From NCBI RefSeq assembly GCF_000027125.1, contig NC_017626.1: a stretch of 64,000 nucleotides of DNA, one strand, 5' to 3'. Positions 100-15,263 of this stretch are shown piece after piece. The notes beneath the pieces are model-generated. The model saw nothing but the letters and a program-made list of their open reading frames with translations, did no database searches and was not told the origin of the DNA. A program made the position numbers and the translations under genes. Within the stretch, counting starts at the first letter, position 1. Every line of letters starts with the position of its first letter. The stretch is from Escherichia coli 042 (GTDB taxonomy: Bacteria > Pseudomonadota > Gammaproteobacteria > Enterobacterales > Enterobacteriaceae).

Positions 100-395
100 T
101 GAGGGTCAGAGTTTATATTGCCGGTCCAATGACGGGATATGAAAATTTCAACCGTGAGGCGTTTCACAAGGCGGAAGAGGAACTGAAACGGGAAGGGCAT
201 ACCGTCTTAAACCCGGCAGTACTTCCGGACGGGCTGACACAGCCGCACTACATGGATATTTGCATGGCAATGATTCGTTGTGTGGATGCGATTTACATGC
301 TGAATGGCTGGCAGCGGTCAGCGGGCGCTAAGGCAGAGCTGGCACTGGCGGAGAAACTGGGGCATGCAGTGATTTATCAGGAGGTGGCTCAATGA
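100..395 (+). CDS. Phage nin-region protein, possibly DUF4406/nucleoside 2-deoxyribosyltransferase-like
   Basis: ORF 30..395; likely GTG start at 100 after GGAGG at 88-92; motif VYIAGPMTGY recalled from DUF4406-type phage proteins. Confidence 0.45.
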
Positions 396-853
396 GAGAG
401 GTTAACTATGAGGCGCTTCGTGAGGCAGCACAAAACTATCAGTCGACGCTGGCGTGGTATCAGGCTATCCCGGACAGCCCAAATGCTGAACGGGATTGTG
501 ATGCGGCTCTTGCTGCGTTTAAGCGTCACATCCGTCATCGGGAAGCGGATATTATCGCTGATTTGCTGGATGGACTGGAAGAAGCAAAATCACAACTCAA
601 AGAGCAGCGTGAGTATTACGAAGGCGTTATCTCTGATGGGAGCAAGCGTATTGCTGAACTGGAAGCGCGGGAAGTTCAATTACCGACTCGCTACGACCTT
701 CGATATGGACACCCGATAAATGCAGATGAGCGACATGTCATGATACCTAAAGAAAATGGCAGTTGGCTTTACCTGATTGACTTAGAACACGCATTACGCG
801 TCGCTGGCATTCGCATCAAAGGAGAGGAGCATGGAAATAAAACCAGAGGATGA
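392..853 (+). CDS. Hypothetical phage protein
   Basis: 153-aa ORF, start overlaps upstream stop (ATGA), typical nin-region packing. Confidence 0.45.
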   Translation: MREVNYEALREAAQNYQSTLAWYQAIPDSPNAERDCDAALAAFKRHIRHREADIIADLLDGLEEAKSQLKEQREYYEGVISDGSKRIAELEAREVQLPTRYDLRYGHPINADERHVMIPKENGSWLYLIDLEHALRVAGIRIKGEEHGNKTRG

Positions 854-2207: not shown

Positions 2208-2426
2208 GTGCCTACATTATTCAGAAAAGAATATCCGCGAAAAAGTAGAGCGACAGAATTTTTGTTTCTCATTCTGTTTATCGTGTTGATGATACCGATA
2301 TCCCCGTTAATTCTGGTATGGGGAATCGGAAAAATAATTGAGCCAGTTATTGAATTGTATAACGACGTGGTATGGGCTCCGTTCAACACACTGCACAATA
2401 AAATTAATCCGTATAAGGAAAACTGA
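2208..2426 (+). CDS. Small membrane protein
   Basis: 72-aa ORF with long hydrophobic segment FLFLILFIVLMIPISPLILVWGIG. Confidence 0.4.
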   Translation: MPTLFRKEYPRKSRATEFLFLILFIVLMIPISPLILVWGIGKIIEPVIELYNDVVWAPFNTLHNKINPYKEN

Positions 2427-2427
2427 T

Positions 2428-2691
2428 ATGGCAACTTTGACAAAAAAAGAACAGGCATGGTTGAACGAATTACAGGACGTTCTTGATCGCTGTCCATCAC
2501 CGAAAAAAATTGGTTTTTACACCATTGGCGATAAAAGCATTTACCTGTATGACCTGCGCCGCATGGATGAAATCATGGAGGCTCTTGATAATCGTTCGTC
2601 AATGGATTGGTGTGTTGCTGTCCATGATATGAATGCAGGGTTTGATGAAAAGATTTTGTTCCCCTCATCAGTTGAAAGCACTGCGGGTTAA
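2428..2691 (+). CDS. Hypothetical phage protein
   Basis: ATG at 2428 inside ORF 2338..2691, immediately after upstream stop. Confidence 0.4.
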   Translation: MATLTKKEQAWLNELQDVLDRCPSPKKIGFYTIGDKSIYLYDLRRMDEIMEALDNRSSMDWCVAVHDMNAGFDEKILFPSSVESTAG

Positions 2692-2701
2692 GGAGTAACA
2701 C

Positions 2702-2869
2702 ATGACCACTATTACCAAAGAACGTATTGAATTGTTCATTAAAAACCCGCTTGAAAACGGGCTTACCCGTGGTGAACAAATGGAACTGGCACGGATTGCG
2801 CTGGCATCGCTGGAAGCAGAGCCGGTTGTGTTCTGGTTTGAAAAATATCAAGAAGGGGCTACGGCATGA
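2702..2869 (+). CDS. Hypothetical phage protein, paralogous N-terminus to next gene
   Basis: 55-aa ORF by eye; shares MTT.T.E and IAL.SL.AEP motifs with ORF 2866..3210. Confidence 0.35.
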
Positions 2870-3210
2870 CGACTTTTACCAGAGAGCAGTTAATAGCTCA
2901 CGCAGAGGAGACTATTGAAGCACAGAGACTGTGCATACCGGGCACAATCGACCATGACATCATCCGCACATATAAGATGGATATTGCTGTTCTGGAAATC
3001 GCACTGGTATCGCTGGCAGCAGAGCCAGCCGGTAAATTGCATGAATACAAACCAGTGGGATATCAGCGTCTGGTCGATGAGTTAACCATGCTGGTAAAGC
3101 AGTTAACCTGGCAACTGAGGAAAGCGAAGCCAGACTGCAAATTACCGGATAAGGCGATGAGTTATCTGGAGCGGAACGGACTGATAAGCGTGGAGGATAT
3201 TTTACGATGA
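2866..3210 (+). CDS. Hypothetical phage protein
   Basis: 114-aa ORF, start overlaps upstream stop. Confidence 0.45.
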
Positions 3211-3501
3211 CCTGGCCTGAAGCATTAACAACGGTAGGAATTGCGATGGCGGTGGCGCTGGTGGTGTATTCGATTTGCCGCTGGGGATAAAAACGGTTTG
3301 CGGGAAAAGGAGAGTTAAGTAGAATTGCAGCGGGTGCTTGAGGCTATCTGTCTCAGGCATGAACACCAAAAGGCAGATAGAGAAAAGCCCCAGTTAACAT
3401 TACGCGTCCGGCAAGACGCTTAACATTAATCTGAGGCCATATCTATGCTCTACACACGTAGGTTAGCCTCTTACGTGCCGAAAGGCAAGGAGAAGCAGGC
3501 T

Positions 3502-3657
3502 ATGAAGCAGCAAAAGGCGATGCTAATCGCCCTGATCGTCATCTGTTTAACCGTCATTGTGACGGCACTGGTAACGAGGAAAGACCTCTGCGAGGTACGA
3601 ATCCGAACCGGCCAGACGGAGGTCGCTGTCTTCACAGCTTACGAACCTGAGGAGTAA
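3502..3657 (+). CDS. hokD: Hok/Gef-family type I toxin (HokD/RelF-like)
   Basis: 51-aa product MKQQKAMLIALIVICLTVIVTALVTRKDLCEVRIRTGQTEVAVFTAYEPEE matches my recollection of the Hok family (TM helix, conserved Cys, C-terminal AYE); in-frame upstream extension from 3445; hairpins downstream. Confidence 0.8.
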   Translation: MKQQKAMLIALIVICLTVIVTALVTRKDLCEVRIRTGQTEVAVFTAYEPEE

Positions 3658-3727
3658 GAGACCCGGCGGGGGAGTAATCTCCCGCCACCTCTGATGTGCC
3701 AGGCATCCTCAACGCACCCGCACTTAA

Positions 3728-3746
3728 CCCGCTTCGGCGGGTTTTT
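3728..3746 (+). terminator. Rho-independent terminator hairpin (copy 1 of a 20-bp repeat)
   Basis: cccgcttcggcggg followed by T-run; identical sequence recurs at 5563-5582. Confidence 0.6.
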
Positions 3747-3822
3747 GCATTAGTCTGGTTGACAAAAATAGAAAAATGCGAAAATATGTGGTTTACGAAT
3801 TCTAAAAAAAGCGAAACTTGAA

Positions 3823-4473
3823 ATGAATGAAAATCAGTTAGCTCCTTGTTGGGAATTTCAACCTTATCTTGCTGAAAACTATGTTCGCCACTTGTTGGCG
3901 GAGATCGCTAACGTACTTGAGCAGCTGTACTATCATAAGCACGCATTAGACAGCAACTGGTCTGAAGGTGTAAGGGCTTATGATTGGGTCAGAAATCATC
4001 TTATTCAAAATGAAGATGCAATTCCTGGCCTTGAGATGATTTCCAAGGGGTTGGACTATGTAGTTGCTTTAAATAAAGTTCCGCTACAATTTACCAAAGA
4101 TTGCATTAATAACCCCAAAAAGAAACATCGTCTGCGTCGAAATAAAGTAGAGTATGAGCAGCTCTCATTGTTTGGTGATGTTGAGGCTGAGCAAGATATT
4201 ACATGGCGAGTCATAGCTGAGCCTTTTTTATCCGAAGAGGGCGATGGTGAATTAGAGTCCACACTGCCTCGTTGGGAGGTAGCTCTTGTTGGATTTAATA
4301 CTTATGGTGCTCAGATTAGTATAGTTTCTCATCAATCTACAGCATCGATGCCGCTTATGCCTCTTGATTATAACACACTCCCTGACGAAGCGGAGATTAA
4401 TAAGGTGCCTCTTCGTCGGCGTACGAAGGATAAAGATTTGGATGTGAGCAGTGATGGAACATCAGGTGAATAA
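3823..4473 (+). CDS. Unknown 216-aa protein, upstream partner of HTH-peptidase (candidate toxin/effector)
   Basis: AT-rich ORF after TTGACA-containing promoter-like region; overlaps downstream gene by 23 nt; no family recognised by eye. Confidence 0.6.
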   Translation: MNENQLAPCWEFQPYLAENYVRHLLAEIANVLEQLYYHKHALDSNWSEGVRAYDWVRNHLIQNEDAIPGLEMISKGLDYVVALNKVPLQFTKDCINNPKKKHRLRRNKVEYEQLSLFGDVEAEQDITWRVIAEPFLSEEGDGELESTLPRWEVALVGFNTYGAQISIVSHQSTASMPLMPLDYNTLPDEAEINKVPLRRRTKDKDLDVSSDGTSGE

Positions 4474-5557
4474 CTTCACTGAGTATCGGGGTGATAAGCT
4501 CAAACTAGCGAGAATGGCTGTTGGGCTTTCTTGTGAAGAGTTAGCCGAAAAAATTGGCAAGACAAAGCAATTCGTTAGCAAACTGGAGAAGGGGTGCAGG
4601 CCATCGGAGCAATGTCTTGAGTTAATATCTTCAGCGCTTATGATTAAGTCCAGTTTTCTTTTTACTGAACGAAAATACGCTCTGGAAAGTGATGTCTGCC
4701 ATTTTCGGAGTAAGAAGTCCAGGACTCAAACGCTGACTAATAGTGTATTGGCCAGGGCTGAGATTCTTAATATTATAATTTCTGCTGTTGAAGGTGAAAT
4801 CGAATTTCCTGACGTTAACATACCGGAGCACCCAGGGGCTGAATTACTTACTCCGAATGATATTGAGCGAGTGGCAGAAGATTGTCGCCGTGCCTGGAAT
4901 TTAGGTCTTGGCCCTATATCATCAATGGTTAAATTGGCGGAGAGTTTAGGGGTAATCGTTGCGCATGTTACGGGAGTCGATGATCGTGTTGATGCTTTTA
5001 CTGTTCACAATAACAGGCCTGTTATCATCAGGAACAATGTTAAAAAAAGCATATGTAGATTTCGCTCTGATTTAGGTCATGAATTAGGGCATTTAGTAAT
5101 GCATGAGGGCATAACGACAGGTGATAAACTTACGGAATCACAAGCCGATCACTTTTCGAGCGCCTTATTAGTTCCCAGGTTATCTTTCATTAAAGAATTT
5201 CCACGAATACGAGGTAAGCAATTCGACTGGAATGCTCTGGTTGAATTTAAACTTAGATGGAAAATCAGCCTTAAAATGTGTATTTATCGAGCCAGCGCAT
5301 TAGGCTTATTGACCCAGGAACAGGCAAGAACTGGCTATATGCATCTTAATTCCAGAGGGTATACGAGAGTTGAACCTGGTGATGAACTTTTGCGCCCTGA
5401 AGAACCCGGCATGCTGGCCGAGGCGATTGAAATGCTGGATGATGCAACCTGGCTAAGAATTCTTATGAAAACTGGCTTGAGCCAAGATTTAATTCGTGAG
5501 TTGTTCTCCATCAACAGACCTATTACAAATCCAAGAAATATTTTCCAGATTGTTTGA
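4451..5557 (+). CDS. XRE-family HTH fused to ImmA/IrrE-type (HEXXH) zinc metallopeptidase
   Basis: N-terminal HTH (LARMAVGLSCEELAEKIGKTKQFVSKLEKG); C-terminal HELGHLVMHE motif typical of ImmA/IrrE (COG2856/M78-like) peptidases. Confidence 0.7.
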   Translation: MMEHQVNNFTEYRGDKLKLARMAVGLSCEELAEKIGKTKQFVSKLEKGCRPSEQCLELISSALMIKSSFLFTERKYALESDVCHFRSKKSRTQTLTNSVLARAEILNIIISAVEGEIEFPDVNIPEHPGAELLTPNDIERVAEDCRRAWNLGLGPISSMVKLAESLGVIVAHVTGVDDRVDAFTVHNNRPVIIRNNVKKSICRFRSDLGHELGHLVMHEGITTGDKLTESQADHFSSALLVPRLSFIKEFPRIRGKQFDWNALVEFKLRWKISLKMCIYRASALGLLTQEQARTGYMHLNSRGYTRVEPGDELLRPEEPGMLAEAIEMLDDATWLRILMKTGLSQDLIRELFSINRPITNPRNIFQIV

Positions 5558-5562
5558 GTATA

Positions 5563-5582
5563 CCCGCTTCGGCGGGTTTTTT
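5563..5582 (+). terminator. Rho-independent terminator hairpin (copy 2)
   Basis: cccgcttcggcggg plus T-run directly after the 4451..5557 stop. Confidence 0.6.
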
Positions 5583-5714
5583 GTTTTTATTTTCAACGTG
5601 TTTGAAGTTTTGGACGGTGCCAGAATAGAATCAAAAATACTTAAGTAGCGCGCAGGGAGAAGAGGGATGGACCCCGAACAGGGGGAGTGCTATTTATCTG
5701 GAAGGATTCTGTTG

Positions 5715-5888
5715 ATGAAAATCGAAGAATTACGTGAAATTTTTAGTGAAGATGGCCTCTATGCTGTGCGCGTTGAGAATGGGGGTATTACCTACACAGC
5801 GTTAATTCCTGATGATCATGTAGTGTTATCTGTTGAGGCATTCATTGAATACTTGGAAAGACTCGGTTTCAAGGTAGTTCGGGAATAA
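5715..5888 (+). CDS. Hypothetical small protein
   Basis: ATG at 5715 within ORF 5667..5888 (MKIEELREIF...); AT-rich upstream region. Confidence 0.35.
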   Translation: MKIEELREIFSEDGLYAVRVENGGITYTALIPDDHVVLSVEAFIEYLERLGFKVVRE

Positions 5889-5935
5889 GTTATAATACGT
5901 GAGCCAGCCTGAACAACTGGCAACCTGCAGCGCCA

Positions 5936-6220
5936 TTGGAGATGACAATGGCGCATAATTTCAAATTTCGCAATTCTGATTCTGCCTTTGCCAGCAGGCA
6001 CGGGTGGCGTTCTCACGCATTCAAATATGACTGGTATCAGCACGATCCCTGTACTGAAGAACAGGCCGAATGGCTGATTCATAACTACCGCAGACGTGGA
6101 TATGAGTTTAGGAAAGCCCTCACCCTCGATTATCGTCACTGGATAATCTACGTCAGACTCCCTTATTCCGAACGCCCACCGCGTCCGTCCCGCACATTCC
6201 AGCAACGCATCTGGAGGTAA
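5936..6220 (+). CDS. Hypothetical phage protein (rem-like position)
   Basis: 94-aa ORF directly upstream of the DUF968 gene, same position as rem in Qin. Confidence 0.4.
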   Translation: MEMTMAHNFKFRNSDSAFASRHGWRSHAFKYDWYQHDPCTEEQAEWLIHNYRRRGYEFRKALTLDYRHWIIYVRLPYSERPPRPSRTFQQRIWR

Positions 6221-6221
6221 C

Positions 6222-7268
6222 GTGCGGGTATTACTTCGACCTGTTCTGGTACCGGAACTCGGGCTGGTGATCGTTAAGCCGGGCCGTGAATCCATGCCGG
6301 TATTCCACAATACCCGGGTACTGGTGGAGCCGGAACCGAAAAGCATGCGTAATCTGCCGTCCGGGGTCGTTCCTGCCGTTCGCCAGCCGCTGGCGGAGGA
6401 TAAATCATTACTGCCATTTTTCAGCGACGAACGAGTGATTCGTGCTGCTGGTGGCGCTGGCGCATTGTCTGATTGGTTACTGCGCCATGTTAAATCCTGC
6501 CAGTGGCCACACGGCGATTATCACCACAGTGAAACCGTCATTCACCGTTATGGTACCGGCGCAATGGTGTTGTGCTGGCACTGCGACAACCAGCTGCGCG
6601 ACCAGACCTCCGAATCACTCGGGCAACTTGCTCACCAAAACCTGTCTGCATGGATGATTGACGTCATACGCCATGCAATGAATGGCTCGCAGGAACGGGA
6701 ATTATCGCTGGCTGAATTATCCTGGTGGGCGGTCCGCAATCAGGTGGCGGACGCGCTACCGGAAGCGGTATTACGTCGTTCGCTGGGGTTGCGTGCGGAA
6801 AAAATCCGCTCAATGTACCGTGAAAGCGACATCGTACCGGGAGAGCAGACCGCCACCAGCATACTGAAGCAGCGCACAAAAAATCTTGCGCCGCTGCCTC
6901 ACGCCCACCAGCAAAACCCGCCACAGGAAGAGACGGTGGTCAGCATTGCCGTTGATCCTGAGTCTCCGGAATCTTTCATGAAACGACCTAAACGTCGCCG
7001 CTGGGTTAACGAGAAATACACACGCTGGGTGAAGACACAGCCGTGTGCGTGTTGTGGTAAGCCAGCCGACGATCCCCATCACCTGATTGGTCATGGTCAG
7101 GGCGGAATGGGGACAAAATCTCACGATATTTTCACGCTACCGCTGTGTCGGGAGCATCACAACGAGCTTCATGCGGATCCGCTGGCGTTCGAAGAAAAGC
7201 ATGGTTCTCAGGTTGATTTAATTTTTCGTTTTCTTGATCACGCCTTTGCAACTGGCGTGCTTGGGTAA
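6222..7268 (+). CDS. DUF968-family phage protein (YdfU-like)
   Basis: 348 aa; C-terminal Cys/His cluster CACCGK...HHLIGHGQGG...CREHHNELH recalled from YdfU-like prophage proteins; sits upstream of rusA/Q. Confidence 0.6.
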   Translation: MRVLLRPVLVPELGLVIVKPGRESMPVFHNTRVLVEPEPKSMRNLPSGVVPAVRQPLAEDKSLLPFFSDERVIRAAGGAGALSDWLLRHVKSCQWPHGDYHHSETVIHRYGTGAMVLCWHCDNQLRDQTSESLGQLAHQNLSAWMIDVIRHAMNGSQERELSLAELSWWAVRNQVADALPEAVLRRSLGLRAEKIRSMYRESDIVPGEQTATSILKQRTKNLAPLPHAHQQNPPQEETVVSIAVDPESPESFMKRPKRRRWVNEKYTRWVKTQPCACCGKPADDPHHLIGHGQGGMGTKSHDIFTLPLCREHHNELHADPLAFEEKHGSQVDLIFRFLDHAFATGVLG

Positions 7269-7280
7269 AAGAGGTGACTG

Positions 7281-7655
7281 ATGCTCATAGATTTGGTTTT
7301 ACCTTACCCGCCGACGGTGAACACTTACTGGCGACGCCGTGGCAGCACATATTTTATCTCGGAGGAGGGAAAGCGTTATCGCCGGGCTGTGGCGCTTATT
7401 GTTCGCCAGCAGCGGCTGAAATTAAGCCTGTCCGGAAGGCTGGCGATAAAGGTGATTGCAGAGCCACCGGATAAGCGTCGTCGCGACCTGGACAATATCC
7501 TGAAAGCACCGCTGGATGCGCTGACGCATGCGGGAGTGTTAATGGACGATGAGCAGTTTGATGAAATCAATATCGTTCGTGGTCAGCCAGTATCTGGTGG
7601 ACGTCTGGGGGTGAAGATTTACCCCATAATGCTTGAAGGGCAGGTCAAAAAATGA
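7281..7655 (+). CDS. rusA: Holliday junction resolvase RusA
   Basis: 124 aa; RRRDLDNILKAPLDAL matches the conserved RusA DxDN catalytic region. Confidence 0.85.
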   Translation: MLIDLVLPYPPTVNTYWRRRGSTYFISEEGKRYRRAVALIVRQQRLKLSLSGRLAIKVIAEPPDKRRRDLDNILKAPLDALTHAGVLMDDEQFDEINIVRGQPVSGGRLGVKIYPIMLEGQVKK

Positions 7656-8473
7656 AACTGGAAGATTTACCGAAATACTACTCCCCAAAATCCCCCGGCC
7701 TGACTGATGCATCGGCCTCAACGTCGAAAGATGCGCTGAGTATCACTGATGTGATGGCCGCGCAGGGCATGACACAGAATCGGGCTGAGATGGGGTTTTC
7801 TGCGTTCCTTGGGAAAATGGGCATTAGTATGAATGACAGAGAGCGGGCAACAGAATTGCTGACAGAATATGCACTCAGGCGGTGTGATCGCGTGGCGGCG
7901 TTAAGAAAACTCCCGGCAGAAATAAAACCGGCAGTGATGCGTATTATGGCTTCGTATGCGTTTGAAGATTATGCCCGTAGCGCGGCGAGCAAAAAACAGT
8001 GCTCCTGCTGTCACGGAAAAAAATTTATTGAAAGCGAGGTTTTTACAAACAAGATCCAGTATCCGGATGGTAAGCCGCCGGTATGGGCAAAGTGTACGAA
8101 AGGTGTGTATCCGTCTTACTGGGAAGAATGGAAAAAAGTCAGGGAGGTGGTAAAAGTTGCCTGTCCGGAGTGTGGCGGAAAGGGTGAGGTTTCCACCGCC
8201 TGTAAGGATTGCCGTGGGCGTGGTGTCGCCATTCATCGTGAAGAGTCGGTAAAACGTGGTATGCCTGTTATCAGAGACTGCCAGCGTTGTGGTGGTCGTG
8301 GCTGTGAAAGACTACCATCAACGGAGGCATTTAATGCCATATGCAAAGTGACGAGTGCTATCACGCTTGATACGTGGAAAAAATCAGTGAAACGCTTTTA
8401 CGATACGTTGGTGGTTCGGTTTGACATTGAAGAGGCATGGGCGGAGCGGCAGTTAAAGAGGGTAACGCGATAG
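7652..8473 (+). CDS. Late-gene antiterminator Q-like protein (QuuQ-type) with zinc fingers
   Basis: 273 aa with repeated CxxCxGxG motifs; follows rusA and precedes a terminator and the late region. Confidence 0.6.
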   Translation: MKLEDLPKYYSPKSPGLTDASASTSKDALSITDVMAAQGMTQNRAEMGFSAFLGKMGISMNDRERATELLTEYALRRCDRVAALRKLPAEIKPAVMRIMASYAFEDYARSAASKKQCSCCHGKKFIESEVFTNKIQYPDGKPPVWAKCTKGVYPSYWEEWKKVREVVKVACPECGGKGEVSTACKDCRGRGVAIHREESVKRGMPVIRDCQRCGGRGCERLPSTEAFNAICKVTSAITLDTWKKSVKRFYDTLVVRFDIEEAWAERQLKRVTR

Positions 8474-8555
8474 TGTTGTTGATTTTTCCCGAATCTGTGG
8501 TAAATTTGCTCTAACGATGGGCGTTTTATGCCTGACGTTAGAAGATTTTTTACAC

Positions 8556-8577
8556 CCCGCCGCCTGGCGGGTTTTTT
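8556..8577 (+). terminator. Rho-independent terminator, probably tR' of the late promoter region
   Basis: cccgcc gcct ggcggg hairpin followed by TTTTTT just downstream of Q. Confidence 0.5.
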
Positions 8578-8699
8578 ATGACTGAAATCGCGTCAGTACA
8601 GTAAACGCGCTGGTGGCGGTGAATACCTGTCTTTCAGCTTGCTGGCTTTTTCGACAAGAGTTATTGGTGTGTCACGTTAACCGGGAAAGGGAAAAAGAC

Positions 8700-8897
8700 A
8701 TGCTAAAACAGCAGGATATGACAGAAACCGCCAGAGTAGTGTTTAATGAATTAAGCGTTACCGAACCGGCGACAGTCGGGGAGATAGCGCAGAATACTTA
8801 CCTTTCACGCGAACGCTGCCAGTTAATACTGACCCAGCTGGTTATGGCGGGTCTGGCAGACTATCAGTTCGGTTGTTACAGACGCCTTCCGCAGTGA
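8700..8897 (+). CDS. Hypothetical small protein, possibly winged-helix
   Basis: ATG at 8700 within ORF 8613..8897. Confidence 0.35.
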   Translation: MLKQQDMTETARVVFNELSVTEPATVGEIAQNTYLSRERCQLILTQLVMAGLADYQFGCYRRLPQ

Positions 8898-9047
8898 AGG
8901 CTTTTTTATTTGTGGTAAATGGGCGGCTGGTGGGTGTTAGGGGCACCCACCAGCCATCTGCTCATGCGTTGGGTTCACAAGCAAACCTCAGGCCCACTGC
9001 TTTGCGCAAAAGCAGAATGAGCCTATCAGAGACAGGCTTAATGATCC

Positions 9048-10097
9048 ATGCTTAATACTGTAAAAATATCCAGTTGTGAGTTAATCAACGCCGACTGCCT
9101 GGAATTTATCCGGTCGTTACCCGAAAATTCTGTTGACCTGATAGTCACGGACCCGCCGTACTTTAAAGTGAAGCCTGAAGGCTGGGATAACCAGTGGAAG
9201 GGCGACGATGATTACCTGAAGTGGCTGGACCAGTGTCTGGCGCAGTTCTGGCGGGTGCTGAAACCTGCCGGAAGTCTTTACCTGTTCTGTGGTCATCGCC
9301 TGGCATCTGATATCGAAATCATGATGCGTGAACGCTTCAGTGTGCTGAACCATATTATCTGGGCGAAGCCGTCCGGACGCTGGAACGGATGCAACAAGGA
9401 AAGCCTGCGGGCGTATTTCCCCGCCACAGAGCGCATTCTGTTCGCGGAACATTATCAGGGGCCGTATCGTCCGAAAGATGCCGGGTATGCGGCGAAGGGC
9501 AGTGCACTGAAACAGCATGTGATGGCCCCGCTGATTTCTTACTTTCGTGATGCGCGCGCGGCCCTGGGGATAACGGCAAAACAGATTGCAGATGCCACAG
9601 GAAAGAAAAACATGGTGTCGCACTGGTTCAGTGCCAGTCAGTGGCAGCTACCGAACGAAAGCGATTATCTGAAATTACAGTCGCTGTTTGCCCGGGTGGC
9701 AGAAGAGAAACATCAGCGCGGTGAACTGGAAAAGCCCCACCACCAGCTGGTGGATACGTATACGTCACTGAACCGGCAGTATGTGGAGCTGCAGAGTGAA
9801 TATAAGCATCTGCGGCGGTATTTTGGTGTGACGGCGCAGGTGCCGTACACGGATGTGTGGACACATAAACCGGTGCAGTTCTATCCCGGGAAACATCCGT
9901 GCGAAAAACCGGCAGAAATGCTGCAGCAGATAATCAGCGCAAGCAGTCGTCCGGGTGACCTGGTTGCAGATTTTTTTATGGGCTCAGGTTCAACGGTAAA
10001 AGCGGCACTGGCGCTCGGGCGTCGTGCGATTGGCGTTGAACTGGAGACCGGACGTTTTGAGCAGACAGTCAGGGAAGTTCAGGATTTAATCGTTTGA
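9048..10097 (+). CDS. DNA N6-adenine/N4-cytosine methyltransferase (beta-class), no partner nuclease seen
   Basis: IVTDPPYF (motif IV) near the N-terminus and FMGSGST (motif I) near the C-terminus. Confidence 0.8.
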   Translation: MLNTVKISSCELINADCLEFIRSLPENSVDLIVTDPPYFKVKPEGWDNQWKGDDDYLKWLDQCLAQFWRVLKPAGSLYLFCGHRLASDIEIMMRERFSVLNHIIWAKPSGRWNGCNKESLRAYFPATERILFAEHYQGPYRPKDAGYAAKGSALKQHVMAPLISYFRDARAALGITAKQIADATGKKNMVSHWFSASQWQLPNESDYLKLQSLFARVAEEKHQRGELEKPHHQLVDTYTSLNRQYVELQSEYKHLRRYFGVTAQVPYTDVWTHKPVQFYPGKHPCEKPAEMLQQIISASSRPGDLVADFFMGSGSTVKAALALGRRAIGVELETGRFEQTVREVQDLIV

Positions 10098-10146
10098 AAC
10101 GGATGAGATTGCAGAATTAATTACGCACCATTATTATTCTGCTCCC

Positions 10147-10222
10147 GGCCCTTTAGCTCAGTGGTGAGAGCGAGCGACTCATAATCGCCAGGTCGCTGGT
10201 TCAAATCCAGCAAGGGCCACCA
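10147..10222 (+). tRNA. ileZ: tRNA with CAT anticodon, Ile2 (lysidine)-type or Met
   Basis: 76-nt cloverleaf: acceptor ggccctt/aagggcc, T-arm gctgg-ttcaaat-ccagc, anticodon loop ctCATaa, 3' CCA; close to recalled E. coli tRNA-Ile2. Confidence 0.85.
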
Positions 10223-10229
10223 TCACATA

Positions 10230-10306
10230 CCGCCATTAGCTCATCAGGAAAGAGCGCCAGCCTTCGAAGCTGGTTGCGCGGAGTTCGGGTCCCCGAAGGC
10301 GGTCCA
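10230..10306 (+). tRNA. tRNA-Arg (anticodon TCG as read)
   Basis: 77-nt cloverleaf: anticodon stem ccagc/gctgg with loop ctTCGaa, 3' CCA; one mismatch each in acceptor and T stems. Confidence 0.6.
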
Positions 10307-10319
10307 TTATCTGTATCCT

Positions 10320-10396
10320 GCGTTGTTAGCTCAGCCGGACAGAGCAATTGCCTTCTAAGCAATCGGTCACTGGTTCGAATCCAGTACAACGCGCCA
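10320..10396 (+). tRNA. tRNA-Arg (anticodon TCT)
   Basis: 77-nt cloverleaf: acceptor gcgttgt/acaacgc, T-arm actgg-ttcgaat-ccagt, anticodon loop ctTCTaa, 3' CCA. Confidence 0.85.
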
Positions 10397-10440
10397 CACT
10401 TATTTTCCCTGGCTCGCTTTTGCGGGCTTTTTTTTAAATG

Positions 10441-10656
10441 TCTCACAATTCAGGCGGTTGACTGTTGTCTGGTTTGCGGGGAGTTTGTTAAAAGAAACTG
10501 GCATGGTGAATCCCCCTGTGCGGAGGGGCAATCAGCGAGTAGGTATATGGGATAATCGCGGATTCAGGTGCTGGTACTGAATTCACCGGGAGGCACCCGG
10601 CACCATGCAATGGCACATAGCGCCACTCTCCAGCCCCTCTCCGGAGGGGCTTTTCT
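10441..10656 (+). repeat. Structured repeat unit 1 (sRNA-like: promoter-like box, hairpins, terminator)
   Basis: Shares with unit 2 the blocks tcacaattcag, ttgac, ttgttaaaa, gcatggtgaatccccctg.gcggagggg, gtataat/ggataat, caccgggaggcacccggcaccatg and terminator gcccctctccggaggggc+T-run. Confidence 0.55.
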
Positions 10657-10908
10657 GTGCCGGATACATCACAGTTTCTGGAACCTTAGGTACTACAGTA
10701 TCAGTCAGGGTGCTATATTTTCAGATGTGATGAAAGCCTGTCAGCAGGCAGGGCGTATCGGAAATGACCCAGTAGAGAAAACGTTGACTCAGATACCGGT
10801 GCTGAGTTACCGGGAAACCGGCATCACATGACCGCTATCCTTCCAGGCCCATCCGCTCCGGTGGGCCTTTTTACTGCAGAAAACAGGTTCCCCGTTAAAT
10901 GCTATGTT

Positions 10909-11141
10909 GCTCACAATTCAGTAAGTTGACAGTTGCCTGTCAGACTGGGCATTTGTTAAAAAAATTTCGCATGGTGAATCCCCCTGAGCGGAGGGGCGAC
11001 TGGTGACGGTATAATCTCTGATTATCAAAACGAGAATGACGCGGGTTTAGTGGCACCGGACTGAACTCACCGGGAGGCACCCGGCACCATGTGCATGATG
11101 ATACAGATACGCGGCTTTAGCCCCTCTCCGGAGGGGCTTTC
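10909..11141 (+). repeat. Structured repeat unit 2 (sRNA-like)
   Basis: Second diverged copy of the same ~220-bp unit, with a perfect TATAAT at 11010-11015. Confidence 0.55.
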
Positions 11142-11371
11142 TTATGGACAAAAAAAGCCCGCGCTGGGAGACGCGGGCGGCAAGGAATAAACAATAAAAC
11201 GTGAAGTAATATTTCAGCTGGCGAATAATACCCCATAGTAATCACTCTGCGCAACTGCGCGGTCTTTTTCGAATTGCGGGCTGTAGTCTCCCTTCTGCCA
11301 TTGTCCTGTAACTTCCGGACTTCAGCCTGCTCCTTATCTGACTCACAACATTATCCCGCCCGGGAGGATTC

Positions 11372-13225
11372 ATGGCATTTAAACACTATGACGTGGTCAG
11401 GGCGGCATCGCCGTCAGACCTTGCGAAACGACTGACACAAAAACTGAAGGAGGGCTGGCAGCCGTTTGGTAGTCCGGTGGCCATAACCCCTTATACCCTG
11501 ATGCAGGCGATTGCAGCAGAAGGTGATGTGGTCGTCAGTGGTGCAACTGAGCCGGAGTGGTACTACGTCATCGTACTGGCCGGGCAATCCAATGCCATGG
11601 CTTACGGTGAAGGGCTTCCGCTTCCGGATTCATACGATGCGCCCCATCCGCGCATTAAGCAACTGGCCCGTCGTAACACAGTGACTCCCGGTGGTGAAGT
11701 ATGCGTATTTAACGACATCATTCCTGCTGACCATTGTCTGCATGATGTTCAGGATATGAGTACGATTAACCATCCCCGGGCTGACCTGAGCAAAGGGCAG
11801 TACGGCTGTGTCGGACAGGGCTTACATATTGCCAAAAAACTGCTTCCGTATATCCCTAATAATGCGGGGATCCTGCTGGTACCATGCTGTCGTGGTGGTT
11901 CGGCATTCACCCAGGGCACGGAGGGGACATTCAGCGAGTCCACGGGAGCCAGTCAGGATTCGGCTCGCTGGGGAGTGGGTAAGCCGTTATATCAGGATCT
12001 GCTTTTCCGCACGAAGGCAGCATTGCAGAAAAACCCGAAAAACGTTTTGCTGGCGATATGCTGGATGCAGGGGGAATTCGATATGACGAATGCCAGTTAC
12101 GCCCAGCAGCCAGCAGCATTTCTTGCAATGGTACAGCAGTTCCGTGCTGACCTTGCCGGGCTGGCAGCGCAGTGTCACGGTGGAAGTCCGGCATCAGTCC
12201 CCTGGATTTGTGGCGACACGACATACGCGTGGAAACAAGAACACGGTACGCAATATGAAGTGGTATATGGTGCATATAAAGGTAAAGAATCCCAGCAGAT
12301 TTATTTTGTTCCCTTTATGACCGATGGTAGCGGAGTTAATACACCGACAAACAACCCGTCAGAAGATCCTGATATTGCCGGGTCTGGTTATTACGGTTCG
12401 GCATCCCGAACGAACAAAAACTGGGTATCATCAAATCGCCCGACGCATTTCAGCTCATGGGCGCGTCGTGGCATTATTCCCGATCGTATGGCAACTGCTA
12501 TTCTGAACGTAGCCGGTCGCACCTTAGCCTTCATTAGTGGTAAGGCACCGGAAATCAAACCCTCGCCCGGCGGCGACACGCCATTGGGGCCGTCTGAAGA
12601 TGCATCCATACGCACAATCTCCCTGTTGCCGACAGCCGGAGACGCTGCTGCGCAGGGCTGGAGCATTAAGAATGGCGGAATTCAGTTGTCAGATGGTGTA
12701 TTTAAGATCACCAAGCAGAGCAATAAAGCCTGGTCCCTGACGCGCCCGGTGGATGACGCAGTCTCCCTGCTGACACGGGGTGGCAGACTGAGCTGTAAGT
12801 TTCGACTGTCAGGCGCACTGACCAACAATCAGTTCGGTCTGGGAATTTATCTGTATACCGATGTAGCGTTACCTGACGTCGTGGCGATGACCGGGACTGG
12901 TAACCCGTTCCTGATGTCGTTCTTCACCCAGACCACAGACGGCAAACTGAATCTGATGCATCACAAGAAAGCAGGAAACACAAAGTTGGGCGAGTTCGGG
13001 AATTACAGTAACGACTGGCAGACGCTGGAGCTGGTGTTCACCGCCGGCAGTGCCACGGTTACTCCGAAACTGAATGGAGTGGCTGGCCCGGCATTCCAGG
13101 TCATAAAAGACAGTCTGACACTGGGGCTGAATGCGCTGACGCTGACGGATATTACCAAAAATGCAGCGTATGGCGTTGAGATAGAAAGTCTGGTGCTGGA
13201 GATAAATGCACCGGCATCATCATAA
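11372..13225 (+). CDS. Phage NanS-p-like sialate O-acetylesterase (DUF1737 + SGNH hydrolase)
   Basis: 617 aa; N-terminal MAFKHYDVV... and GQSNAMAYGEG esterase motif; occupies the post-tRNA position before the lysis genes. Confidence 0.75.
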   Translation: MAFKHYDVVRAASPSDLAKRLTQKLKEGWQPFGSPVAITPYTLMQAIAAEGDVVVSGATEPEWYYVIVLAGQSNAMAYGEGLPLPDSYDAPHPRIKQLARRNTVTPGGEVCVFNDIIPADHCLHDVQDMSTINHPRADLSKGQYGCVGQGLHIAKKLLPYIPNNAGILLVPCCRGGSAFTQGTEGTFSESTGASQDSARWGVGKPLYQDLLFRTKAALQKNPKNVLLAICWMQGEFDMTNASYAQQPAAFLAMVQQFRADLAGLAAQCHGGSPASVPWICGDTTYAWKQEHGTQYEVVYGAYKGKESQQIYFVPFMTDGSGVNTPTNNPSEDPDIAGSGYYGSASRTNKNWVSSNRPTHFSSWARRGIIPDRMATAILNVAGRTLAFISGKAPEIKPSPGGDTPLGPSEDASIRTISLLPTAGDAAAQGWSIKNGGIQLSDGVFKITKQSNKAWSLTRPVDDAVSLLTRGGRLSCKFRLSGALTNNQFGLGIYLYTDVALPDVVAMTGTGNPFLMSFFTQTTDGKLNLMHHKKAGNTKLGEFGNYSNDWQTLELVFTAGSATVTPKLNGVAGPAFQVIKDSLTLGLNALTLTDITKNAAYGVEIESLVLEINAPASS

Positions 13226-13375
13226 AAAGTGAGCCAGCCAAATGGAAGGTATCGTTAAACTCACCGGTAGTGTCAGTGGGTCGTCTGAGATGCCTGCATG
13301 AGTTATCAGAGCCATCAGTACTTAACTGGTGGCTTTTTTTATTGTTGTCAGCTTCCGGATAACGGGAGACGGGGT

Positions 13376-13591
13376 ATGTACCAGATGGAAAAAATCACAA
13401 CAGGTGTGTCATACACCACGTCAGCGGTGGGAACGGGCTACTGGTTCCTGCAGTTGCTGGACAGGGTTTCCCCGTCTCAGTGGGCGGCAATAGGCGTGCT
13501 GGGGAGTCTGCTGTTTGGGCTGCTGACATATCTGACTAACCTGTATTTCAAAATCAGAGAGGACCGTCGTAAGGCTGCACGGGGAGAGTAA
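13376..13591 (+). CDS. Holin, S21-type pinholin with dual start
   Basis: 71 aa [10 protein letters not shown]...[24 protein letters not shown]...[13 protein letters not shown] matches recalled phage 21 S; two in-frame Met (M1, M4) as in antiholin/holin pairs. Confidence 0.85.
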
Positions 13592-13595
13592 TTCA

Positions 13596-13911
13596 ATGAC
13601 TCAAAACTATGAACTGATTGTGAAAGGGATCCGCAATTTTGAGAATAAAGTTACGGTAACTTTAGCGTTACGGGACAAAAAAACGCTTTGACGGTGAAAT
13701 TTTTGACCTGGACATCTCGCTGGACCGTGTTGAAGGTGCCGCGCTGGAGTTTTATGAGGCAGCAGCCAGAAGGAGCATCAGACAGGTCTTCCTGGATGTT
13801 GCTGCCGGGTTATGTGAAGGGGACGAGCTGTTGCCAGAAACGCGCCCCTGTTCAGAGGCGCGGTATACCATAAAAATTAACAGTTCTGATAACTCGATTA
13901 CGGGTTGTTAG
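13596..13911 (+). pseudogene. ydfR-like small gene split by a frameshift at an A7 run
   Basis: ATG 13596 reads 31 codons to TGA at 13689-13691; the +1 frame continues open from 13684 to TAG 13909-13911 with no start codon; junction is the A7 tract 13677-13683. Confidence 0.5.
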
Positions 13912-13966
13912 CTTTTTGCAGTTGGCTTTCCAGTATCTTTCATTGGTAGCATCCTGATAAATATCC

Positions 13967-14500
13967 ATGAGCGCAAAAATCAAATACGGCCTGTCAGCTG
14001 CTGTTCTGGCGCTGATTGCTGCAGGCGCGTCTGCTCCTCAGATACTTGACCAGTTTCTGGACGAAAAAGAGGGTAACCACACAACGGCATACCGCGATGG
14101 TTCCGGCATCTGGACCATCTGTCGGGGGGCCACGATGGTGGATGGAAAACCCGTTTTTCCCGGTATGAAACTGTCGAAGGAAAAATGCGACCAGGTCAAC
14201 GCCATTGAGCGTGATAAGGCGCTGGCATGGGTGGAGAAAAACATCAAAGTGCCATTGAGCGAACCCCAGAAAGCGGGGATCGCGTCATTCTGTCCGTACA
14301 ACATTGGTCCCGGTAAGTGTTTCCCGTCGACGTTTTATAAACGAATTAATGCAGGTGATCGCAGGGGAGCGTGTGAGGCGATTCGCTGGTGGATTAAGGA
14401 CGGTGGCAGAGACTGCCGTATTCGTTCAAACAACTGCTACGGTCAGGTATCCCGTCGTGACCAGGAGAGCGCGCTGGCGTGCTGGGGTATCGACAGATAA
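13967..14500 (+). CDS. SAR endolysin (phage lysozyme, R21-like)
   Basis: 177 aa; N-terminal signal-anchor LSAAVLALIAAGASAP followed by lysozyme fold, T4-lysozyme-like (GH24) family as recalled for R21. Confidence 0.85.
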   Translation: MSAKIKYGLSAAVLALIAAGASAPQILDQFLDEKEGNHTTAYRDGSGIWTICRGATMVDGKPVFPGMKLSKEKCDQVNAIERDKALAWVEKNIKVPLSEPQKAGIASFCPYNIGPGKCFPSTFYKRINAGDRRGACEAIRWWIKDGGRDCRIRSNNCYGQVSRRDQESALACWGIDR

Positions 14501-14659
14501 GCAGAATATTTTGCTGAAAAATAAGGCATGGCCACGCGGGCGGATAACATGAAATCCTGCGAAGTGGCGAAACGTAAGTGAATAAAAGTAAAAACCCCGT
14601 TTGTTGGCACCAAGCGGGGTTTTGTGTTTCCTGACTCCGGAAAAGTCAAAGGAGAAAGT

Positions 14660-14797
14660 GTGTTTGATTTTAGCAAACTGATTCGGGAGATTCGAGTGAT
14701 GGCTGAAAAATTATCCACCTGGAAGTTCATTCTTATCTGGCTGGTGTTTGTGATTATGGCCTCCGGTTATTTCATCGGTCAGATACGCTGGTGGTGA
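14660..14797 (+). CDS. Possible small membrane protein between R and Rz
   Basis: GTG 14660 (or ATG 14699) after GGAG; hydrophobic [20 protein letters not shown]; stop overlaps Rz start. Confidence 0.25.
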
Positions 14798-14798
14798 A

Positions 14799-15263
14799 AT
14801 GAACCGCGTACTGTGCGTGGTCATCATTGCCCTGCTGGTGGCCTGTGGTGCGCTTAGTCTGGGGCTGAATCATTACCGTGATAACGCCATTACCTACAAA
14901 GCCCAGCGCGACAAAAATGTCAGAGAACTGAAGCTGGCGAACGCGGCAATTACTGACATGCAGATGCGTCAGCGTGATGTTGCTGCGCTCGATGCAAAAT
15001 ACACGAAGGAGTTAGCTGATGCGAAAGCTGAAAATGATGCTCTGCGTGATGATGTTGCCGCTGGTCGTCGTCGGTTGCACATCAAAGCAGTCTGTCAGTC
15101 AGTGCGTGAAGCCACCACCGCCTCCGGCGTGGATAATGCAGCCTCCCCCCGACTGGCAGACACCGCTGAACGGGATTATTTCACCCTCAGAGCGCGACTG
15201 ATAATAATGCAAAAACAACTTGAAGGGGCACAGCTATACATTCGAGAGCAATGCCTCAGATAA
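14799..15263 (+). CDS. Rz: Rz i-spanin
   Basis: 154 aa, near-identical over most of its length to recalled lambda Rz ([17 protein letters not shown]...). Confidence 0.9.
15019..15201 (+). CDS. Rz1: Rz1 o-spanin lipoprotein, embedded in Rz in +1 frame
   Basis: 60 aa with lipobox VVGC and proline-rich [20 protein letters not shown] as in lambda Rz1. Confidence 0.85.

Follow-up and report, generated by a model that had tools for sequence, protein, structure and literature searches.

Two kinds of small accessory protein in lambdoid phages provide the closest described parallels to the genes considered here. Ea22 proteins of lambda and Stx phages consist of a common N-terminal, coiled-coil part followed by unrelated, swapped C-terminal domains, DUF551 among them, and their genes are mosaic (PMC10834534). 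EaA of phage P22, the 317-aa product of gene eaA in the early-left "ea" region, is the second. Recombination mechanisms that rely on Red and Rad52-like recombinases are proposed for mosaics of this sort in PMC2327257 and PMC3945230; the same papers report that lambda Red promotes recombination between diverged sequences and that temperate phages gain DNA from defective prophages by relaxed homologous recombination, and to that extent exchange at short homology patches is plausible. Here, we analyze two adjacent open reading frames (ORFs) of an Escherichia coli prophage that share an N-terminal module, and we compare the locus with these systems.

Locus organization

The window (the whole 64,000-nucleotide stretch of DNA analyzed) is E. 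coli prophage DNA; over positions 2400-3400 it matches E. coli ABU 83972, NCTC86, and many further human isolates with 100% identity. Two ORFs were found where the original prediction had placed them, both starting with MTT(I/F)T(K/R)E as it had noted. RefSeq lists them, in ABU 83972, as the hypothetical proteins WP_000207997.1 (ORF A) and WP_000206826.1 (ORF B). With their immediate neighbors they are:

2428..2691, + strand: upstream 87-aa gene (phrog_1714, E=6e-51), starting MATLTKKEQ, which travels with the A head (phage VSe13)
2702..2869, + strand: ORF A, 55 aa, from the ORF listing of the window
2866..3210, + strand: ORF B, 114 aa, composed of a B-type head, a linker, and a helical C-domain of phrog_660 type
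3207..3290, + strand: 27-aa hydrophobic ORF, from translation, with an ATGA overlap with the ORF B stop

The ORF A stop and the ORF B start overlap as ATGA. A strong ribosome-binding site, AGGAG, lies 6 nt upstream of ORF A; ORF B has a weak one, GGGG only. DnaT-like and P replication genes precede both ORFs, and hokD, DUF968, RusA, and Q follow, so that the pair occupies a position equivalent to the nin region and the nin-region label attached to it earlier is a fair one. Other phages, P22-like and Stx phages among them, carry this cluster of small genes next to xis/int, at the end of the early-left operon (the "ea" region). Neither ORF has a match in Pfam at E<=1 or in NCBIfam, and PADLOC at E<=1 has none for them or for ORFs 1631-1990 and 2428-2691; DUF551 (PF04448) and the dATP/dGTP pyrophosphohydrolase DUF550 (PF04447) are among the Pfam domains absent from both ORFs.

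Several neighboring features deserve mention in their own right. The 27-aa ORF belongs to a block, 2811-3291, inherited as a unit (homology to Stx phage ArgO145 ends at 3291); it is not annotated in RefSeq; the annotation of phage vB_EcoS-689R5 includes a CDS that overlaps it. A hok/sok type I toxin-antitoxin locus spans 3332-3657 (+), with the Hok/Gef peptide at 3445-3657 (Pfam, E=2.9e-23; hokD in RefSeq) and an Rfam sok match at 3332-3507 (117 bits). Farther downstream lie a 216-aa protein at 3823-4473 (+; PADLOC RmrT, E=4.6e-25) and a 368-aa protein with an HTH and an ImmA/IrrE-like peptidase part at 4451-5557 (+; PADLOC RmrA, E=6.2e-105); this RmrT and RmrA pair in a prophage nin-like region we take to be two components of a RosmerTA-type anti-phage defence. 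Chi octamers (GCTGGTGG) number 20 in the 64 kb against 2.5 expected from shuffles, and 12 of the 20 fall within 3257-14841, the prophage early region (e.g. at 3257, 6447, 8609-9753, and 14385-14841). Chi-rich lambdoid phages are reportedly the subject of a published paper (PMC12315714). Finally, in IMG/VR contig 2859827302_000005 (L016:535-2038), ORF B appears interrupted after ...IIRTYK by ~1.3 kb of inserted DNA, which may be an insertion sequence, and then resumes.

A shared N-terminal head

The claimed resemblance between the two N-termini holds on formal alignment and is better than chance. BLASTP aligns A and B with 18/54 identities (33% overall, 13 gap positions, E=1e-5), and their Smith-Waterman score is 56 against 23.1 ± 4.1 for shuffles (z-score ~8), with 0/5000 shuffles of either sequence reaching 56. 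The motif (R/E)IAL(A/V)SL(E/A)AEP is present in both ORFs as predicted; its spacing, also said to be similar, is so but is not equal, the motif starting 13 residues later in B (residue 44) than in A (residue 31), and the alignment gives ORF B insertions of 11 residues and 2 residues relative to ORF A. At the DNA level, a single 29-nt patch can be aligned, the IAL.SL.AEP codons, with 25/29 positions identical. Both N-termini match the phrog_3323, phrog_60, phrog_660, and phrog_5117 profiles, and a search for the shared domain, with a profile built from 23 representative heads, against the six-frame translation of the 64 kb returned exactly two copies, those of A (E=7e-25) and B (E=3e-20), the next best match being at E=0.6. 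The A and B modules are homologous, and the two heads hence paralogous. Beyond the head, ORF A and ORF B share no homology. The parts of the two ORFs are:

2702..2824, + strand: head A, EaA-type N-terminal module, residues 1-41 (profile E=7e-25)
2792..2824, + strand: motif copy A, a mosaic joint where VSe13 homology ends, ArgO145 homology starts, and the fused gene crosses over
2825..2869, + strand: ORF A tail (14 residues) and stop codon, from the 3' end of an HNH endonuclease gene, carrying the ATGA coupling region
2866..3027, + strand: head B, residues 1-54, a predicted helical hairpin (profile E=3e-20; AlphaFold2)
2995..3027, + strand: motif copy B, a direct repeat of 2792-2824 (offset 203 bp, 25/29 nt) and its recombination partner in the fused gene
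3028..3207, + strand: linker (residues 55-62, low confidence) and C-domain (about residues 63-114, motif KPDCKLPD), from AlphaFold2 and orthologues

The module is the N-terminal head of P22 EaA: residues 1-40 of ORF A are near-identical to residues 1-40 of EaA, the head profile matches EaA residues 1-42 at E=6e-23, and the N-terminus of each of our two ORFs matches it as well, placing both among EaA-type heads. An alignment of heads reveals a common plan, with a start of the form MTT[IF]TKE, a variable center of differing length, and a nearly invariant end, in which IAL.SL is invariant and EAEPV common. The head measures 43-60 residues and is N-terminal; a flexible linker connects it to a C-terminal part that is interchangeable. 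In an exhaustive profile search over 1.84 billion representatives, with clusters at the 50% identity level, 2111 clusters matched at E<=1e-3 and 452 at E<=1e-10; among the best 150 of the 2111 matches, the head occupies residues 1-43/49 in almost all, in proteins of 55-457 aa. DUF551 is present in 33 of 104 representatives of at least 120 aa and the dATP/dGTP pyrophosphohydrolase in 3, the other 68 being without a Pfam domain. In fact, closely similar heads recur on diverse proteins: the A head (first ~42 residues) at 90-98% identity on DUF551, DUF550, Eaa, and 97-aa Salmonella family proteins, and the B head at 96-100% identity on the DUF551 proteins P0184 and P0186. Conversely, the C-terminal 50 residues of ORF B recur on 160-199-aa proteins with other heads (P0191, P0201, and P0210). 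The head is absent from Pfam, NCBIfam, PADLOC, and the PDB, where a sequence search with the head profile gave nothing below E=0.37; our literature search returned no paper describing it, only the Ea22 mosaic analogy and general papers on recombination. A widespread N-terminal module, found in 2111 clusters at the 50% identity level, is thus missing from Pfam and NCBIfam.

The AlphaFold2 model of ORF B shows a two-helix hairpin followed by a flexible linker. In the head, helices span residues 6-26 and 30-51, with a pLDDT of 88-94 over residues 11-50; the linker, residues 52-62, is of low confidence (pLDDT <50 at residues 56-62), and the C-domain forms three helices over ~60 aa. Foldseek comparison of this model with BFVD and the PDB yielded no match at E<=0.001, generic alpha-hairpins only. 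An AlphaFold2 model of an A-B fusion of natural type, built to stand in for the packing of heads against one another, was of low confidence, with a mean pLDDT of 50.7. In the MAFFT alignment, ORF A homologues were also placed on the B head. None of the Pfam, NCBIfam, PADLOC, PDB, and Foldseek searches returned a match hinting at a function of head-bearing proteins.

ORF A as a chimera

The DNA relatives of the locus change partner within ORF A. Salmonella phage VSe13 is 95.7% identical to window 2424-2815, which covers the upstream 87-aa gene and the A head; past 2815, where this homology ends, VSe13 has a DUF550 gene. Stx phage ArgO145, in turn, is 98.5% identical to window 2811-3291, covering the ORF A tail, ORF B, and the 27-aa ORF, with homology beginning at 2811-2822. 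The gene ahead of the ORF B block in ArgO145 is an HNH endonuclease (gp11), and the ORF A tail is identical to the end of this protein. The tail is kept in the HNH homologues of HK225 (62% identity) and an Acinetobacter phage (48% identity), both of which end in ...GL[VI].....PV[VK]F[WF]FE.Y, and dozens of distant HNH homologues align through residues 114-120 of 121; it is accordingly native to the HNH family. Against the HNH endonuclease profile phrog_2118, ORF A aligns with residues 31-54 only, and these fall at the very C-terminal end of the profile (E=0.002); the HNH catalytic core (Cys/His zinc-finger, H-N-H motif) is absent from ORF A. Given the switch from VSe13 to ArgO145 and the HNH character of the tail, ORF A is a recombination chimera: its front part is an EaA-type head, its back part the last ~14 codons of an HNH endonuclease gene, and the two meet at the LEAEP codons (about 2811-2824). 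Phage PhiR49_2 displays a third arrangement, a different head variant with the same tail.

Whether such a chimera still works as a protein is a separate matter. ORF A may conceivably be a non-functional scar, kept open for the ribosome-binding and termination-reinitiation context of ORF B, with only ORF B at work; we regard this as a serious possibility, though one to be held tentatively. It would suit a reading frame made of a head and 14 residues of an unrelated gene, in a slot that related phages fill with an HNH gene, with another head variant, or with nothing (the fused 101-aa form described below), as well as the frameshifted A-B fusions (P0121 and P0122) and truncated versions (P0144) that occur in assemblies and the weak GGGG site and ATGA overlap of ORF B. 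Against it stand the strong AGGAG site of ORF A itself, the persistence of its junction, intact in 330/5426 complete E. coli genomes, with the 55-aa form in 20/80 viral contigs, and the selection acting on the head. A-head DNA diversity is 0.185 at third codon positions versus 0.035 at first and 0.022 at second positions; variation being so concentrated, purifying selection acts on the head as a peptide, and the stretch is more than a linker at the DNA level; the measure was taken family-wide rather than on the 55-aa form alone.

The start of the head seems to behave in the same manner as its end. In the phage database, match endpoints cluster where ORF B ends and at window ~2721-2724, just past the MTTITKE codons; together with the breaks at the motif, the cluster at the head start implies that both conserved ends of the head behave as joints. 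The genes at 2428, 2702, and 2866 (all +) begin nearly alike, with MATLTKK(E), MTTITKE, and MTTFTRE, respectively, and two local recombinants, P0137 and P0140, were found in assemblies. P0137 begins MATLTKEERFTKEQLIAH..., its first residues resembling the start of the 2428 gene and the rest being ORF B; with the three similar starts, it suggests that gene starts are also exchange points. In P0140, seen in one assembly, a DUF4014-family gene runs on in frame into ORF B, entering it at residue ~24. In the window, the DUF4014-family gene lies at 2208-2426 (+), and in ArgO145 and HK225 it is annotated as "released from the phage upon host infection."

A fused gene across the repeated motif

The two motif copies lie 203 bp apart as direct repeats, and a protein that corresponds to recombination between them exists. 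P0151 (101 aa; 13 contigs of E. coli and Shigella) consists of the A head followed directly by the ORF B linker and C-domain, and its gene stands at the same place in the gene order (DUF1627 - DUF977 - ... - 87-aa gene - [101 aa] - hok - ... - RusA - Q). Its DNA corresponds to window 2424-2823 joined to 2998-3747, with the crossover inside the shared ATCGCTGG, at about 2805-2812. By these coordinates, P0151 is exactly the product expected of recombination between the motif copies, 203 bp being removed and a single frame restored. When complete E. coli genomes were queried with the fused junction, the best matches listed were genomes with the two-piece tandem, a query of this kind not separating fused from tandem forms. 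We infer that the fused form is the derived, rarer state, even though present-day sequences give no proof of the direction, from tandem to fused or the reverse. Sequenced genomes retain the parental-type arrangements as well as a chimeric stub and a precise, repeat-mediated fusion, and the locus illustrates in-frame domain shuffling at a short conserved patch; it could also help, as a naturally occurring substrate, to measure recombination through short homologies in prophages.

Head shuffling or duplication in place

How the two heads came to be neighbors was the subject of the original prediction, which proposed a local duplication followed by divergence: an ancestral gene would have doubled in place, and the copies would have drifted apart except in the N-terminal module. 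The genes are indeed adjacent, on the same strand, and overlapping at ATGA, and their N-termini are truly homologous; yet the proposal fails each test applied, and we consider it very unlikely. In the family alignment, the A and B heads are 25% identical, close to the most distant pair among the 23 representative heads (25-33% across our comparisons, near the most distant class pair), and each stands near the bottom of the other's similarity list. Heads 77-100% identical to A or to B are found on other genes, including 90-100% identical copies of each on unrelated genes in other phages. The two heads are thus not mutual closest relatives, nor does DNA similarity extend over a whole unit, as a recent tandem duplication would have it; homology is confined to the head, and the ORF A tail is of HNH endonuclease origin.

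Combinations of heads and downstream parts argue in the same direction. In 305 head-bearing proteins, we distinguished 15 head classes and 96 downstream classes, defined on the first 40 residues after the head, in 133 combinations; the proteins were gathered with A and B as queries, and the class counts are therefore biased towards A/B relatives. A single-linkage clustering of the downstream parts was dropped, since it collapsed into one component, the tails themselves being mosaic. Within this sample, the A class is joined to 75 downstream classes and the ORF B C-domain to 10 head classes, and all four combinations are shown by 14 pairs of head classes; for instance, the A head and the B head each exist with the ORF B C-domain and with DUF551. 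Among ORF B orthologues, C-domains at least 90% identical follow heads only 25-45% identical, and the linker and C-domain region is at least 90% conserved behind 10 different head classes.

The DNA around the heads tells the same story. In a comparison of 77 IMG/VR viral contigs with the window included, median identity is 95% over the A-head DNA and 27-32% over the 150 nt flanking it on each side. Considering the 2636 pairs with heads at least 90% identical, the downstream part is unrelated in 2296 and the upstream part in 1533. Two or three head-bearing genes per operon occur in 26/80 loci, and heads co-resident in one operon are usually of different classes. Homology of the window with other phages breaks, and changes partner, exactly at the shared motif. 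Distant heads, copies elsewhere, multiple combinations, breaks at the motif, and the HNH tail lead us to conclude that A and B are neighbors because recombination brought members of the family together. A duplication may lie far back, at the origin of the head family as a whole; it would be neither local nor recent.

The conservation of A-head DNA, ~95% identical in unrelated contexts, could also be taken to mean that the conserved stretch is mainly a nucleic-acid element (a regulatory RNA, a terminator or attenuator, or a recombination site) and the peptide similarity a by-product. A weak terminator-like hairpin at 2809-2826 overlaps the motif, and a Chi site lies at 3257, 47 bp downstream of ORF B. 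Nonetheless, head variation falls mostly on third codon positions, as noted above, and head classes that differ greatly in DNA keep the peptide motif. Terminator-like sites number 2 against 3.3 expected from shuffles, no Rfam family matches the region, and the Rfam, promoter, and terminator scans showed nothing specific to the head module, their sole RNA match being sok at 3332-3507; such an origin of the similarity is highly improbable. Chance resemblance between low-complexity Ala/Leu/Glu-rich helices, which a motif rich in A, L, and E and a gapped identity of only 33% might evoke, is hardly conceivable and was rejected, being refuted by the shuffle test and the 23-head profile search, with intermediate head classes connecting A and B.

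Proposed origin and possible roles

We therefore hold it very probable that A and B are members of the EaA-type head family, small accessory proteins carried by temperate phages of enterobacteria (lambdoid and P22-like), and that recombination juxtaposed them. The conserved head start, and especially the ~30-nt head end, would serve as short homology patches at which upstream and downstream parts are exchanged, and such exchanges would have set two different heads side by side in this prophage. ORF A, a head-only stub putatively coupled to ORF B in translation, would have arisen when an A-type head met, at the LEAEP codons, the last codons of the HNH gene that formerly preceded ORF B; ORF B itself carries a B-type head on a 60-aa helical C-domain. 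The motif copies may still be recombinogenic, sister prophages having presumably lost 203 bp to yield one in-frame 101-aa gene. Phage Red/Erf-type or host recombination would mediate these exchanges.

By analogy, the head might be an adaptor, or a self-association or oligomerization domain, that presents interchangeable effector domains through a flexible linker. A bolder version is improbable: the head as an uncatalogued interaction domain, the two or three head-bearing genes of an operon as a combinatorial code, and stubs of the ORF A kind as "microproteins" pairing with effectors. Were this so, ORF A-like stubs would regulate or cap co-expressed head-bearing effectors such as ORF B, the hypervariable center of the head would set pairing specificity, and recombination at the conserved ends would rewire which effector answers to which head.

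Comparison with known systems

Neither ORF A (55 aa) nor ORF B (114 aa) is a full-length orthologue of P22 EaA (~317 aa). ORF A shares with EaA the head only; it is without the other ~275 EaA residues and has instead a foreign 14-aa HNH tail, whereas ORF B differs from EaA in both its head class and its unrelated C-domain. Homologues of ORF A are labeled "EaA" or "Eaa protein" in RAST-style annotations because P22 EaA starts with an A-type head; this label, carried by many small ORFs, should not be taken as orthology, since it reflects only a 40-residue head.

Ea22 proteins share the genomic neighborhood and, in outline, the design. An Ead/Ea22-like gene lies at window 392-853, matching PF13935 at 9e-12; neither ORF A nor ORF B matches PF13935 at E<=1 or the Ead/Ea22 family phrog_250, and between Ea22 and the EaA-type head no sequence relationship is detectable. 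Both groups nevertheless follow the same logic, a shared N-terminal helical part with swapped C-terminal domains. In Ea22, this part is a long coiled coil, as opposed to the short predicted hairpin of the EaA-type head, and Ea22 has been characterized experimentally (tetramer, pro-lysogenic effect), whereas EaA-head proteins are known from sequences and models.

The heads of both ORFs match phrog_660, phrog_3323, phrog_60, and phrog_5117, PHROG families that lump mosaic proteins together. ORF B belongs to phrog_660 (E=8.2e-43), which it matches in two stretches, the head and the C-terminal end; ORF A matches with its head only (E=3.9e-10), and ORF 1631-1990 (+, 119 aa) matches the middle (profile 34-143, E=1.8e-42). 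With heads at its start, ORF 1631-1990 in its middle, and the ORF B C-domain at its end, one PHROG thus extends across three genes of this locus, and families such as phrog_660 mix unrelated modules.

Overall, the locus is ordinary lambdoid phage mosaicism, with an uncatalogued but very common N-terminal module, and not a new kind of system. As in lambdoid modular mosaicism in general, short conserved stretches, in this case the two ends of the head, are where homology switches. In contrast to lambdoid whole-gene swaps, the joint here lies within coding sequence, at a domain boundary, and the exchanges therefore create new protein chimeras rather than swapping whole genes.
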